This document shows positions 21,656-30,328 of a stretch of 64,000 bases of DNA, piece after piece. The notes below the pieces were generated by a model. That model saw nothing but the letters and a program-made list of their open reading frames with translations, had not been told where the DNA came from and searched no databases. Both the position numbers and the translations under genes were made by a program. The stretch's first letter is position 1, and every line of letters begins with the position of its first letter. Source of the stretch: an uncultured Gammaproteobacteria bacterium (lineage in GTDB: Bacteria; Pseudomonadota; Gammaproteobacteria; Xanthomonadales; Rhodanobacteraceae). The stretch lies in contig CAVZIT010000007.1 in assembly GCA_963775445.1 (NCBI GenBank), forward strand, positions 31,086 through 95,085. The letters are read 5' to 3'.

Positions 21656-21797
21656 TGCGTCTCTCCAGATTTACCCACGGCGCCACATCCGTAACGCCAG
21701 CCAGACTATAGCGCGCGTCGGAAAGGCATGAGGAAATGAAACTCGCACGCATTGGCGCGCGCGAAAAGTCCAAAGGTTCGCGCCCAATGAACGCGAA

Positions 21798-22001
21798 TCA
21801 AGCAGCGACGGCGATCAGGGGCAGCTCGAATGCGCGTGAACGCAGGGCATCATCAAGGATCTCGGCGGCAAGATCGGAGCAACTGCCGCAACCATCGCCG
21901 CAACCGGTGCGGCGCGACAATTCGCCGACCGTCGCCACGCCGGCGCGGGCGGCATCGCGGATCGCGTGATCGGTTACCGCATTGCAGATGCAAACGTACA
22001 T
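21798..22001 (-). CDS. bfd: Bacterioferritin-associated ferredoxin
   Basis: MYVCICNAVTD ... CGSC [2Fe-2S] motif upstream of bfr. Confidence 0.93.
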   Translation of the reverse strand: MYVCICNAVTDHAIRDAARAGVATVGELSRRTGCGDGCGSCSDLAAEILDDALRSRAFELPLIAVAA

Positions 22002-22036
22002 CGCCGCGCAGCGTCTCTTTCCAGTGAACTGGCGTC

Positions 22037-26479: not shown

Positions 26480-26534
26480 AAATGTCTGATAGAGTGCTCC
26501 CACTTTCCGGCAAACCCCAAGCGAGGCAATCAAT

Positions 26535-26930
26535 ATGTTTGATCAGATCAATTCACAGGCCATGGCCTTCAGCAAGAGCTACACCGACACCATCGCCAAG
26601 ATGCAGAGCCTGACCATGGAAGGCTTCGAGCGCATCGCCGCCGTCCAGATGAAGGCTTTCGAAAACCGCATGAACGCCGCCGTCGAGTTCTGCTCCGAGG
26701 CCTCCGAAGTGCGCGATTTCGAAGGTGCGAAGGCCATCTGGCCGAAAGGCATCCAGCTGGCCAAGGACAACGCCGAGACGCTTTACGCGACCGGTCAGGA
26801 AGTCGTCGGCGTCACGCTCAAGACCAATGAAGCAATCGGCGAGCTGGTCAAGGGCTCGATCGACAGCGCCAATGACAGCGTGACACGCCAGGTCAAGGCT
26901 GCGACCACGAACGCCAAGAAGGCGCGCTGA
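26535..26930 (+). CDS. Phasin family protein (PHA granule-associated)
   Basis: Amphipathic helical protein, EGFERIAAVQMKAFE...EVRDFEGAKAIWPKG, basic C-tail; upstream TGC-N3-GCA site. Confidence 0.75.
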   Translation: MFDQINSQAMAFSKSYTDTIAKMQSLTMEGFERIAAVQMKAFENRMNAAVEFCSEASEVRDFEGAKAIWPKGIQLAKDNAETLYATGQEVVGVTLKTNEAIGELVKGSIDSANDSVTRQVKAATTNAKKAR

Positions 26931-27011
26931 ACCCAATCGGCACGTCCCATACATAATAAATAGAGCGGAACAACGCCGCCGCGTTCTCTCCCCCACGCGG
27001 CGATGTTGACT

Positions 27012-27048
27012 AAAGGCCGAATGAGCAACTCATTCGGCCTTTTTCTTT
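27012..27048 (+). terminator. Rho-independent terminator after phasin
   Basis: AAAGGCCGAATGAG-CAA-CTCATTCGGCCTTT followed by a T tract. Confidence 0.85.
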
Positions 27049-27239
27049 GCCCATCCGGCGCCCCGATTTCCTCGATCGTGCGCGTGACGTCTTCGGACCC
27101 CCCGACGAGGCGAATTGCTTCGATCTGACCCTTGTCGTCATTTTCCGACAGGTCGCGTTGTCAGAAATATTGACAAATGCGATCGACAGATGAAGTGACA
27201 AAGCGTTCCAAAGCCTTGCCCACAGCGGATTTCAGGGTC

Positions 27240-27255
27240 TGGCACGCCGCTTGCT
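27240..27255 (+). promoter_or_regulatory. sigma-54 (-24/-12) promoter, copy A
   Basis: TGGCACG-CCGC-TTGCT, an exact match to the TGGCACG-N4-TTGCW consensus, about 54 nt before the ATG. Confidence 0.85.
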
Positions 27256-27308
27256 CTTGGCCATATCACCAAACCAGACACCACCAGACCAAACCGGGAG
27301 CAGTCATC

Positions 27309-27494
27309 ATGAGCAGCGTAGCCGCCCTGAACTTCAAGCCTTTCTTTCTGCGTCACGACCTGATGATGGAACTCGGACGTCTCGAAATGGCCATCGAAAA
27401 CGCCCGCGATTGGCCAGCCGCAAACGACTCGGTCGGTCGACTCGAATCACGATTCGCAAAAATCAATGATGCGCTGAACAAGCTGCCCGCCTGA
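27309..27494 (+). CDS. Conserved 61-aa helical protein of unknown function, copy A
   Basis: MSSVAALNFKPFFLRHDLMMELGRLEMAIENARDWPAANDSVGRLESRFAKINDALNKLPA; GGGAG RBS; paralog differs mostly at synonymous sites. Confidence 0.85.
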   Translation: MSSVAALNFKPFFLRHDLMMELGRLEMAIENARDWPAANDSVGRLESRFAKINDALNKLPA

Positions 27495-27518
27495 CCGCTC
27501 AGCCGGGGGGACAGGGGC

Positions 27519-27550
27519 CGGGGCCGCGCTTTGCGCGGCCCCGTTTTTTT
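27519..27550 (+). terminator. Rho-independent terminator, copy A
   Basis: CGGGGCCGCGC-TTT-GCGCGGCCCCG-T7. Confidence 0.9.
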
Positions 27551-27608
27551 GGGAATCCAGCCAAATTCCGCCGGCCGCGCGTCACCCGCATCCGTAGGCG
27601 ATGGGCAT
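27551..27608 (-). pseudogene. 5' remnant of the MAPEG gene
   Basis: ATG CCC ATC GCC TAC GGA TGC GGG TGA (MPIAYGCG*) versus intact MPIAYWCI at 29206; upstream sequence also homologous. Confidence 0.6.
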
Positions 27609-27787
27609 GACGGTACTCCAGTTGGACTTGCCCCATCACCACCGAGCCGGACGTGCAATGCCAATCCCAATCCCGCTTTGAAGGATGGATTCAATCGGCG
27701 CCCTGGATCCAGAAATAGCGCCTTTTGCCGGGGGTGAGCCCAGGTGTAGCGTCGATGCCAAACGTGAATCGCACAGGAGGGATCGTC

Positions 27788-28199
27788 ATGCGCATGGTTT
27801 CCTTGAGCACCTTGGCAAGCCTGTTCTGCGTCGTCGCGGTCTGCGCGGCTCCCACCATCGCGTTGGGCGCCAACGCACCGTTTCATGACTCCGCCGCCAC
27901 GCTGGGCCGAAGTACGCAATAACGTTACCGGATCCCACGTTGGTGCGATCGGCAATCTTGTGGGGACTGTTCAACAAGGCAGGATACGATTTGACCGGAG
28001 GAAACGAGGTGCCCGGAATGATCGCCTATCGCCAGCTCCATGAGAGCGACGATCCTTACGATCCGAAGTTCGAGTGGCGCATTTCGCCAAACCCGTCCGG
28101 CACCACGACAGTCGGGCCTCTGCTTCCGGACAAGACAGCAAGCCGCGGCGAGCCAAGCCCTCGAACACGCCCGATCAACAACAGGGTCCGTTCTACTAA
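27788..28199 (+). pseudogene. Secreted protein of unknown function, copy A (two apparent 1-nt deletions; about 137 aa if repaired)
   Basis: Signal peptide then GANAPFHDS; frame breaks at GGG 27904-06 and CC 28153-54; restoring one base at each gives end-to-end alignment with copy B. Confidence 0.65.
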
Positions 28200-28220
28200 G
28201 CGCTATCTTCGCCGCAACCG

Positions 28221-28256
28221 AGCCGCTCCCGGAATCGATCGGCGCGGCTTTTTCTT
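28221..28256 (+). terminator. Terminator after secreted ORF A (imperfect stem)
   Basis: AGCCGCTCCCGG-AATCGA-TCGGCGCGGCT-TTTTC; degenerate version of 29789-29826. Confidence 0.6.
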
Positions 28257-28494
28257 GCGGGGGACACGGGACGGCGTCGTGCTTTGCGCGGCGTATTTTT
28301 TAGGCGCCTTTTTTCTCGAACGCGTTTCGCATGCGTTCCCGGAAGCCGTTCACATTTCCGGTTTGACGTGGTTCCCGATCTGACCTTTCTGGTCATTTTG
28401 CGACAGGGCGCGACGTCGCGAATGGACGCGAACGCGACCAGCCGAGTATGTGACAAAACGTTGTAACATGTTGTTTAAATTATGTTTCTTATGA

Positions 28495-28510
28495 TGGCAC
28501 GCCCTTTGCT
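28495..28510 (+). promoter_or_regulatory. sigma-54 (-24/-12) promoter, copy B
   Basis: TGGCACG-CCCT-TTGCT exact consensus; AT-rich tract immediately upstream. Confidence 0.85.
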
Positions 28511-28557
28511 TTGGTCATAGCACCAAATTGAATCAGACCAGACCAGGAGCGAACATC

Positions 28558-28743
28558 ATGAGCAGTGTAGCCGCGTTGAACTTCAAGCCGTTCTTTCTCC
28601 GCCATGACCTGATGATGGAGCTCGGACGCCTCGAAATGGCCATCGAAAATGCACGTGAGCGACCGGCCGCAAACGACACCGTAGGTCGTCTCGAATCGCG
28701 CTTCGCCAAGATCAATGACGCGCTGAACAAGCTTCCTGCCTGA
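28558..28743 (+). CDS. Conserved 61-aa helical protein of unknown function, copy B
   Basis: 58/61 aa identical to 27309-27494; AGGAG RBS. Confidence 0.85.
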   Translation: MSSVAALNFKPFFLRHDLMMELGRLEMAIENARERPAANDTVGRLESRFAKINDALNKLPA

Positions 28744-28765
28744 CGATCAACCGGGGAACAGGGGT

Positions 28766-28799
28766 CGGGGCCGCGCATTGCGCGGCCCCGTTTTTTTTT
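28766..28799 (+). terminator. Rho-independent terminator, copy B
   Basis: CGGGGCCGCGC-ATT-GCGCGGCCCCG-T9. Confidence 0.9.
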
Positions 28800-28822
28800 G
28801 CGACAGAAGCGCGGCTTGCGCT

Positions 28823-29206
28823 TCAGGCGCAGGCTGCGCTGACGAACAAGGCGATCACGCAGAGCAACGCAAGGCCCCAGACCACGCTGCGCAAGGTTGC
28901 CTGGTTCGCGATATAGCACGCGCCATACGCCAGTCGCAGCGCGACGAATGCGAGCGCGAGCGCGTCGATGCGTCCCTGCGCCACGTGCAGTTGCTCGGCG
29001 ACCAGCACGGCCGCGGCGAACGGGGCGAATGCCTCGAGCGAATTCAGATGCGCCCAGTGCGCACGCGCTGGCGCACCCTGCAAACGCGCCTGAAAGTCGC
29101 GTGGCGCGGCATTGTCGAACTGGCGCCGCCCGAGCCCCTTGGCGATCGCAGTAAACAAGAGTGGCAGCAAAGCGGCGGCGAGAATGCACCAATAGGCGAT
29201 CGGCAT
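28823..29206 (-). CDS. MAPEG family membrane protein
   Basis: MPIAYWCILAAALLP...DNAAPRDF...RAHWAHLNSLEAFAPFAAAV...FVALRLAY. Confidence 0.88.
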   Translation of the reverse strand: MPIAYWCILAAALLPLLFTAIAKGLGRRQFDNAAPRDFQARLQGAPARAHWAHLNSLEAFAPFAAAVLVAEQLHVAQGRIDALALAFVALRLAYGACYIANQATLRSVVWGLALLCVIALFVSAACA

Positions 29207-29363
29207 AAGGCGACTCCGGTTGGTCTAATCCTTCATCATCGTCGAGCGCGGCGTCGGACGCCATCCGCCTCTACGCCGCGGGCGCGAAGGCGACGCGATT
29301 GCGGGCGGTGCAGCGAGCGGCGTAACGTCGATGACGGATTTCGTCCGCAGCGAGGAATCGATC

Positions 29364-29767
29364 ATGCGTATGCGCTATCCGACTCTGCTGGGTTTGCTTT
29401 GCATTGCTGTCCTTGGTGTAGCTCCTTCACCGGTCCGGGGCGCCAACGCGCCTTTCTACGATTCCTCTGAAGCCGCCACGTGGCCAAGCAACATGAATTT
29501 CACTTCGCCGGAGGATGATGCGCGACCGGGCGAGAAGTTTTTCCTGTATGGCGCCCGAGCGCTGACGGCGGACATCAGATGGGCGGATCGGTTGCCTATC
29601 AGCAGCTTCACGAAAGTGACAGTCCCTACGACCCGAAATTCGAGTGGCGCCTGTCGCCGAACCCGACTGGCACCGCAACGGTCGGCCCGTTGTTGCCCGA
29701 CACGGCGAAGAGTGGCGATGACACGAAACTGTCAAATACGCCCGATCGGCAGCAGCATCCGTTCTAG
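29364..29767 (+). pseudogene. Secreted protein of unknown function, copy B (one apparent 1-nt deletion; about 134 aa if repaired)
   Basis: Signal peptide then GANAPFYDS; adding one G at 29567-68 gives LTGGHQMGGSVAYQQLHESD, matching copy A LTGGNEVPGMIAYRQLHESD. Confidence 0.65.
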
Positions 29768-29788
29768 GCGCTGGTTTCGCCGCAATCG

Positions 29789-29826
29789 AGCCGCTCCCGA
29801 ATTCGATCGGGAGCGGCTTTTTCTTG
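29789..29826 (+). terminator. Terminator after secreted ORF B
   Basis: AGCCGCTCCCGA-ATTCGA-TCGGGAGCGGCT followed by T tract. Confidence 0.85.
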
Positions 29827-29959
29827 CGCACAAGAGCGGCCGCTCGATTGGACGCCCGGCTTGCGGCAGTGCAGCAGGCGCTGCTATCCTCCGCGGCCCG
29901 TTTGTCGAGTATCAGTGCCGCCCGCGGATGGTTATGGCGATGCGGCAGGGTAGCTGCGC

Positions 29960-30328
29960 GTGATCAATAGTTTGGCTGCAGGCCGCCGGGTCGCGGGATG
30001 GCTGATGTTGGCGCAAATCGCCAGCGCGCTGCTCGCAGGGGGGGTGTTTTCGCTCGCACAGGGCGAGCGGCCAGCGATTGCAGCCATGTGCGGTGGATTT
30101 GTGGTTGCAGCCGGGACCGCGGCAATGGCAGCGATCAGCCTTGGAGGCCACGTAGCCGACGGGGGCACGATGCTGAGCCGCATGCTGGTCGGCATGTTGT
30201 TGAAGTGGATCGTGGTGCTTGGCGGCGTGCTGCTGCTGATGCTGCACTGGCACTTGCCGGCGCCGGCGGTCCTGATCGGCATGGCGGTCGCCCTGCTCAT
30301 AAACCTGATTGCGTTGAAACGGTTCTGA
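29960..30328 (+). CDS. atpI: ATP synthase protein I-like membrane protein
   Basis: Four TM segments, LKWIVVLGG, immediately upstream of atpB. Confidence 0.7.
   Translation: MINSLAAGRRVAGWLMLAQIASALLAGGVFSLAQGERPAIAAMCGGFVVAAGTAAMAAISLGGHVADGGTMLSRMLVGMLLKWIVVLGGVLLLMLHWHLPAPAVLIGMAVALLINLIALKRF

Follow-up and report, generated by a model that had tools for sequence, protein, structure and literature searches.

Two head-to-tail units between a phasin gene and atpI

The window analyzed here is a stretch of 64,000 nucleotides (nt) (G000:C7:31086-95085) from G000, a 3.55-Mb, 12-contig Dokdonella (Rhodanobacteraceae) genome. Between a phasin gene (26535-26930, PF09361) and atpI/atpB (29960 onward), it contains two head-to-tail units, A and B, each with an open reading frame (ORF) of 61 codons that we refer to as sp61. 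Both units follow the same order: a palindromic upstream region, a sigma-54 promoter, the 61-codon ORF, a hairpin terminator, a MAPEG sequence on the minus strand, pieces of an ORF with a signal peptide, and a second terminator. The closest relative with a single sp61 is the metagenome-assembled genome (MAG) JBAUWF01, here called L034. The two sp61 transcription units comprise the following elements.

27137-27163, plus strand: enhancer (upstream activating sequence) of copy A, box GTCATTTTCCGAC and then a GTC/GAC repeat, 103 nt before the -24 element (motif comparison)
27240-27255, plus strand: sigma-54 -24/-12 promoter of copy A, TGGCACGCCGCTTGCT (TGGCAC-N5-TTGCT; motif, conserved in relatives)
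27309-27494, plus strand: sp61A, intact gene for a 61-residue helical-hairpin protein (dN/dS against copy B; exact RNA contig 27282-27538)
27519-27550, plus strand: intrinsic terminator of sp61A, 11 G-C pairs and T7 (G+C-rich hairpin 27519-27543, inside which the RNA contig ends)
28392-28418, plus strand: enhancer of copy B, with box GTCATTTTGCGAC 103 nt before the -24 element (motif comparison)
28495-28510, plus strand: sigma-54 -24/-12 promoter of copy B, TGGCACGCCCTTTGCT (TGGCAC-N5-TTGCT; motif)
28558-28743, plus strand: sp61B, intact 61-residue gene, orthologue of the single copy in L034 (RNA contig 28550-28700)
28766-28799, plus strand: intrinsic terminator of sp61B (G+C-rich hairpin 28766-28790)

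The upstream regions that include the enhancers (27121-27207 and 28376-28462) are 71% identical, and the two sp61 ORFs are identical at 85% of nucleotides and 95% of amino acids. The repeat extends into pieces of the signal-peptide ORF together with the second terminators (28196-28259 and 29764-29828). Overlapping short-read contigs from two soil metagenomes, X1 and X2, form a chain over 26900-30000 that crosses the A/B junction (one record covers 28212-28770), and they reproduce copy A without gaps from 27098 to 28144. Because these independent contigs span both the units and the junction between them, the array is confirmed as real and is no assembly duplicate. With collinear, homologous units in head-to-tail order and this independent support, the locus has the structure of a tandem segmental duplication. 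The assembly nevertheless probably holds single-base indel errors (a C-homopolymer at 27097 and positions 28149/28151, where the short-read contigs have extra bases), so single-base frameshift calls in G000 should be treated with care and confirmed at the level of reads.

sp61 is a constrained and transcribed small gene

sp61A and sp61B differ at 27 nucleotides, 24 of which are third codon positions. The nonsynonymous divergence (dN) is 0.025 and the synonymous divergence (dS) 1.03, a dN/dS of 0.025, and both copies are under strong purifying selection. Both are also transcribed in soil metatranscriptomes. A mismatch-free RNA contig over sp61A runs from 27282, just past the promoter, to 27538 within the terminator, and its depth is second only to that of the phasin gene within 20 kb; the start of this unstranded, assembled contig provides the only data on where the transcript begins. 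The phasin gene itself (26506-26983) is the most abundant transcript of that 20-kb stretch in all four soil metatranscriptomes examined.

Homologs of sp61 occur in 21 of 24 genomes of the same genus, mostly as a single copy, and in 69 of 301 genomes of the order (24 of 83 genera). An exhaustive profile search of 1.8 billion representatives recovered 115 sp61 clusters, nearly all of 57 to 70 residues, while a word-index protein search gave just 2 relatives. Named members come from Frateuria, Dyella, Ahniella, Oleiagrimonas, and others, and every sampled one is annotated as "hypothetical protein." The AlphaFold2 model of sp61 is a two-helix hairpin (residues 11-33 and 39-58) with a predicted local distance difference test score (pLDDT) of 82, and the protein lacks a signal peptide and a membrane segment. 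We thus predict that sp61 is a cytoplasmic two-helix hairpin of about 60 residues representing an unnamed family of Rhodanobacteraceae and allied families. No Pfam or NCBIfam family matched sp61 when every ORF piece and 20 sp61 homologs were scanned, a sequence-profile search of the PDB gave only chance coiled-coil matches, and a Foldseek search of the model against the PDB (best E = 1.9) gave only generic helical-hairpin or coiled-coil matches. Nothing relevant turned up in the literature on sigma-54 small proteins of Rhodanobacteraceae.

The enhancer and promoter of sp61 resemble those of pilA

Each sp61 is preceded by GG at -24 and GC at -12 with TGGCAC-N5-TTGCW spacing, as in sigma-54 promoters, and this element is kept upstream of sp61 in more than 70 relatives across genera. 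The genome has an RpoN ORF with the RpoN box ARRTVAKYR (G000:C6:128942) and eight bacterial enhancer-binding proteins (bEBPs) that score above the PF00158 cutoff. About 100 nt upstream of the promoter, a box of the form GTCA-N5-NGAC with further GTC/GAC half-sites is found at 60 of 78 sp61 promoters, in 56 of them at -105 to -75. Its spacing fits none of the NtrC, NorR (GT-N7-AC), FleQ (GTCA-N6-TGAC), and NifA-type sites, a comparison on which no claim made here depends. The 550- to 900-nt spacer between sp61 and mnmG in relatives (for example, L083, L084, L093, and L110; L038 and L049) carries further conserved blocks upstream of the enhancer, such as TTAGCGAAsTGTGAACA in a Rudaea-like group and, in many Dokdonella, GATCATGCGCGC at about 75 nt from the promoter. 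The window copies have none of these.

Among 169 sigma-54-like sites in G000, only 4 have it at -125 to -85 (about 0.47 expected by chance), and these precede sp61A, sp61B, the major type IVa pilin gene pilA (C6:736072), and an AdrA-like MASE2-GGDEF gene (C4:1527518). It lies at -103 for sp61 and at -106 for pilA. We also searched 27 Dokdonella genomes for the composite GTCA-N6-GAC, 76 to 100 nt, TGGCAY-N5-YTGCW. It matched 29 times, upstream of sp61 (15), the major pilin gene (13), and the AdrA-like GGDEF gene (1), and the reversed pattern, used as a control in the same genomes, matched 0 times. The pilA enhancer and that of sp61 share the same box and orientation, at nearly the same distance. 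A bEBP gene of the REC-AAA+ type lies directly upstream of pilA, which is the canonical PilS-PilR/sigma-54 target in Gammaproteobacteria, including this order (PMC8035640, PMC6058289).

Since the sp61 enhancer has the same box at nearly the same distance as that of pilA, its activator is most likely PilR. On these grounds sp61 probably belongs to the PilR/sigma-54 regulon and would be its second conserved member in Dokdonella.

The AdrA-like MASE2-GGDEF diguanylate cyclase gene (G000:C4:1527412-1528620) has its box at -106 and a strict TGGCAC-N5-TTGCT promoter, the only site of this kind in G000 besides those of pilA and the two sp61 genes. In Lysobacter, a member of the same order, PilR binds the promoter of a diguanylate cyclase gene, lchD (PMC8035640). 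About 1.5 kb of repetitive tandem sequence resembling repetitive extragenic palindromes, open in several frames, separates the pilR-like bEBP gene from pilA in G000 (G000:C6:734300-735900); in G009, also a Dokdonella genome, the end of pilR abuts the pilA promoter.

These results bear out part of what a sequence-only reading of the window had proposed. The two copies with the same element order are evident from the repeat structure and alignments, and the view that they are no assembly duplicate holds, given the contigs across the junction and the 15 to 29% divergence of the copies. The view that the duplication is old is likewise supported. The 61-residue ORF was rightly taken as a real gene outside any recognized family, as selection, transcription, and the lack of Pfam, NCBIfam, and PDB matches attest, and the sigma-54 promoters and upstream palindromes reappear in relatives as a conserved motif and enhancer box.

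sp61 lies away from mnmG in this lineage

At 75 of the 80 related loci, sp61 and mnmG are divergently oriented, usually with a convergent pepN after sp61, and mnmG (usually with pepN) flanks sp61 in 18 of 20 more distant genera. D. soli, D. fugitiva, and D. ginsengisoli likewise have sp61 beside mnmG. The mnmG locus of G000 has neither pepN nor sp61; sp61 was thus relocated in this lineage. L034 has the order phasin, sp61, MAPEG, atpI, with one sp61, no Sel1-repeat gene of the kind described below, and no trace of unit A. The dS between sp61B and the L034 gene is 0.58, versus 1.03 between sp61B and sp61A, and a comparison of the three genes yields 17 A-specific and 8 B-specific sites. Either the duplication predates the split from L034 and unit A was lost there, or unit A is a diverged allele that integrated beside B.

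Independent duplication of sp61 is also seen in other lineages. At the mnmG locus, two other Dokdonella MAGs have sp61 in tandem pairs, separated by about 50 nt. A second, dispersed sp61 lies inside a leucine-catabolism (liu) gene cluster in G233, and G116 has two sp61 loci (C3 and C7). Coordinates of independent duplications are L043:4001-4423, L053:3-390, and L077:4001-4183.

Decay of the MAPEG and Sel1 genes

The remainder of each unit consists of the following features.

27595-27654, minus strand: MAPEG remnant of copy A, reduced to its 5' leader, start codon, and some 5 codons (MPIAY) (local alignment to 29193-29254)
27788-28199, plus strand: Sel1-repeat family pseudogene of copy A, Sel1 domain deleted (pieces mapped to an intact 293-residue allele)
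28218-28255, plus strand: second terminator of copy A (repeat families)
28259-28303, plus strand: degenerate third terminator of the sp61 type at the A/B junction, after the copy-A Sel1 terminator (76% identical; stem 28274-28294)
28823-29206, minus strand: intact gene for a MAPEG-family membrane protein of 127 residues, copy B (PF01124, E = 8e-26)
29364-29767, plus strand: Sel1-repeat family pseudogene of copy B (two frames, matching residues 1-78 and 228-293 of the 293-residue allele)
29788-29828, plus strand: terminator hairpin that follows the copy-B Sel1 gene, shortly before atpI (29960)

The MAPEG gene of copy B matches its family over the full length (91.1 bits against a Pfam gathering cutoff of 23.4) and is transcribed, with RNA contigs covering 28855-29032. 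Its counterpart in copy A has lost about 370 nt of coding sequence. Among 16 same-genus genomes sampled, we found no MAPEG ortholog, and the sole match was a 34%-identical paralogue in G006.

The signal-peptide ORF has more than 860 relatives in the database, annotated "sel1 repeat family protein." Elsewhere in G000, a whole-genome tblastn search found four intact tandem Sel1 paralogues of 294 to 309 residues (C4:1393101-1397950) with PF08238; two small unrelated ORFs lie between the four, and the array adjoins the liu genes. With these paralogues and an intact 293-residue sister allele, P0145, as references, the window pieces were mapped. Those of copy A correspond to residues of about 12-46, 179-206, and 216-278, each in a different frame. 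Gap-free short-read contigs back the changes of frame within 27098-28144, and the tail frameshift close to 28150 could be an indel of the assembly, given the extra base that the short-read contigs have at 28149/28151. Copy B, relative to P0145, is missing 445 nt including the Sel1 domain between 29565 and 29592. In a sister MAG and an 1,866-nt X1 contig, it is the intact P0145 allele that occupies this very site, immediately before atpI. A run search for the exact 29565/29592 junction found none, leaving the copy-B deletion without independent confirmation, but 445 nt is too large for a base-calling error.

The window fragments themselves gave no Pfam match and lack even one Sel1 repeat. Judged by these alignments, the ORF is a decaying Sel1-family (PF08238) pseudogene in both copies. 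Because the two deletions differ, the ancestor of both units had a full-length Sel1 gene, and the copies decayed separately. Copy A is broken in every strain sampled and copy B only in this strain. The Sel1 remnants were not seen in the metatranscriptome contigs, whose coverage is thin. We also considered a link between sp61 and Sel1 genes, given that the second sp61 of G233 lies 3.8 kb from a Sel1 paralogue, and rejected it: that paralogue is orthologous to the liu-cluster array, and leucine-catabolism genes lie in between.

Several earlier proposals need revision in this light. MAPEG was correctly read as intact in B and as a remnant in A, on the evidence of the PF01124 match and the local alignment. 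The exported protein, taken to be novel, instead belongs to an annotated family and is broken in both copies. MAPEG is hence not the sole recognizable family of the locus, although sp61 remains unnamed. Retention of functional elements applies to sp61 and its enhancer, promoter, and terminator, and not to the fragmented secreted ORF. Likewise, only sp61 has been kept in two doses.

An Rfam scan of 20-32 kb found no RNA family within the locus at 27.1-29.8 kb. The degenerate third terminator hints at an array that was once more complex, for example with a third unit that is now mostly deleted. Farther upstream, an exact metatranscriptome contig of comparatively high depth (about 9) lies at 21778-22007, between bacterioferritin and Nudix (RppH-like) genes; it has no Rfam match and may represent a small bfd-like gene or an untranslated RNA.

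A model of duplication, passenger decay, and control with pilin

We propose that the space between the phasin gene and atpI gained a second unit of about 2.3 kb, either by tandem duplication or by integration of a diverged copy beside the first. The ancestral unit would have comprised the enhancer, the sigma-54 promoter, sp61, its terminator, a minus-strand MAPEG gene, a gene for a secreted Sel1-repeat protein, and a terminator. The passengers would then have decayed, with MAPEG deleted from copy A and the Sel1 gene broken by two different internal deletions, as purifying selection preserved both sp61 genes, each with its own enhancer, promoter, and terminator. sp61 would be made as a short monocistronic mRNA from the sigma-54 promoter, activated from the enhancer about 100 bp upstream. 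Active PilS-PilR would co-induce sp61 and pilin, and G000 would express sp61 from two PilR-responsive genes. Taken as a whole, this account of duplication, passenger decay, and co-induction with pilin is the one that we favor as reasonably probable.

Several observations weigh against it, chiefly against the part played by PilR. The pilA (C6:736208-736495) frame and that of the C-terminal helix-turn-helix part of pilR (C6:732710-734302) look interrupted in the assembly, by indel error or by real loss; in the latter case, this strain may have a defective regulator. The box is TGT-N9-ACA-like and does not conform to the P. aeruginosa PilR consensus TGT-N11-ACA, and the Lysobacter PilR site also seems to differ from that of P. 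aeruginosa (PMC8035640). When 20 distant genera were searched for the exact pattern, just three genomes outside Dokdonella had the box upstream of sp61, and a comparison of the pilA and sp61 enhancers in family f4 (G027) gave no interpretable result. The transcription data are low-depth assembled contigs from soil metatranscriptomes and are unstranded. Finally, no significant sequence or fold match from Pfam, NCBIfam, the PDB profile search, or Foldseek hints at an activity for sp61.

A bEBP other than PilR could instead drive a sigma-54-dependent sp61, either by acting on pilA as well or by recognizing a look-alike box. The genome offers eight bEBPs, the spacing of the box departs from the published consensus, and the pilA-adjacent bEBP is a putative PilR ortholog. 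We nonetheless think this unlikely, as the composite is essentially confined to pilA and sp61 across the 27 genomes, the canonical regulator of pilA in this order is PilR (PMC8035640, PMC6058289), and a bEBP gene sits directly upstream of pilA. Somewhat less improbable, but still not our expectation, is that the second unit is a diverged allele from a related strain that recombined in beside the resident copy, in which case the A/B divergence would reflect the distance between donor and recipient and not the age of a duplication. The closer kinship of copy B to L034 than to copy A, the excess of A-specific sites, and the lack of any trace of unit A in L034 would all follow, and yet an old duplication with loss of unit A in the L034 lineage fits these data equally well. 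Tandem repeats readily collapse through homologous recombination, and tandem sp61 duplications arose independently in other Dokdonella MAGs.

That sp61, MAPEG, and the exported protein form one functional, uncharacterized module, kept whole in two doses by selection, was the central proposal of the sequence-only reading, and we now regard it as very improbable. Both units do share one element order, the copy-B Sel1 gene is intact in sister strains, and sp61 adjoins MAPEG in L034 too. The module fails because sp61 is flanked in relatives by mnmG and pepN (75 of 80 loci; 18 of 20 distant genera) and not by MAPEG, Sel1, or atp genes, and the three genes do not co-occur elsewhere in the neighborhoods checked. 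The 16 same-genus genomes sampled yielded no MAPEG ortholog, this site in L034 is without a Sel1 gene, MAPEG is gone from copy A, whose Sel1 gene is fragmented in every strain sampled, and the more than 860 Sel1 proteins have no fixed link to sp61. Least plausible of all is that the repeat, or the broken genes in it, arose as assembly artefacts. The likely indel errors at 27097 and 28149/28151, the apparent frameshifts in pilA and the pilR C terminus, and the failure to find the exact 29565/29592 junction in any run searched lend it some color, but the copies diverge by 15 to 29%, which excludes that a single locus was collapsed or assembled twice, the array and the copy-A frame changes recur without gaps in independent short-read contigs, and a 445-nt deletion is atypical of base-calling error.

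Possible role and significance of sp61

Beyond the observed anatomy, conservation, selection, transcription, and pilA-like architecture of sp61, a role can be put forward speculatively. Its small size, hairpin fold, lack of a signal peptide or membrane segment, and apparent co-regulation with pilin suggest a small protein-binding modulator in a circuit of pili and cyclic di-GMP (c-di-GMP). Candidate partners are PilS or PilR (as feedback), a pilus ATPase, and a c-di-GMP enzyme or receptor. We tentatively raise the possibility, which we hold to be doubtful, that sp61 is an unrecognized regulatory component of the type IV pili of Rhodanobacteraceae, induced with pilin by PilS-PilR and sigma-54 and acting by binding and modulating a partner. 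If so, the repeated, independent duplication of sp61 in Dokdonella would reflect selection on dose. The recurrent duplications and the retention of both complete transcription units lead us to argue that selection acts on the dose of sp61 or on its differential regulation.

The locus therefore does not present a new multigene system. It singles out a conserved, expressed, and constrained small gene that annotation ignores or calls hypothetical, and gives it a concrete and testable regulatory assignment, the putative pilin (PilR/sigma-54) regulon. What PilR controls besides pilA is poorly defined. A small protein as the only other conserved target genus-wide would offer an entry point to how cells connect pilin sensing with their other functions. 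The array is also a clean natural case of duplication with differential decay, and the presence of intact and deleted Sel1 alleles at one site among strains catches that decay in progress.

Comparison with known systems

Two of the components belong to known families. As a member of the MAPEG family (PF01124), copy B is a full-length, transcribed match and copy A keeps only some 5 codons; the gene is linked to sp61 only within this small clade. The Sel1-repeat proteins have in common a signal peptide, an N-terminal FxxPExxARPG block, and a C-terminal AYRQLxESDxPYDPKF...GTATVGPL block, which recur in the window copies, the four paralogues, and the sister allele. The paralogues and the sister allele carry a Sel1 repeat (PF08238). 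The window copies differ in the lost Sel1-repeat core and broken frame and are remnants.

As a case of duplication-degeneration, the array has two units of the same order, passengers lost by independent deletions, and one gene kept under purifying selection. It departs from that pattern in that the kept gene is a tiny regulated ORF with a complete enhancer, promoter, and terminator, and that the same small gene has been duplicated independently and repeatedly in other Dokdonella genomes.

The closest regulatory parallel is the PilS-PilR/sigma-54 control of pilA in P. aeruginosa and Lysobacter enzymogenes (PMC8035640, PMC6058289), with which sp61 shares a -24/-12 promoter and an enhancer about 100 bp upstream. 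The identical composite precedes pilA and sp61 in Dokdonella, a gene for a REC-AAA+ activator lies beside pilA, and the diguanylate cyclase gene with such a site here recalls Lysobacter PilR at the lchD promoter. The box spacing differs, TGT-N9-ACA-like here versus TGT-N11-ACA in P. aeruginosa. So does the target: sp61 would be a 61-residue cytoplasmic protein and no component of the pilus.

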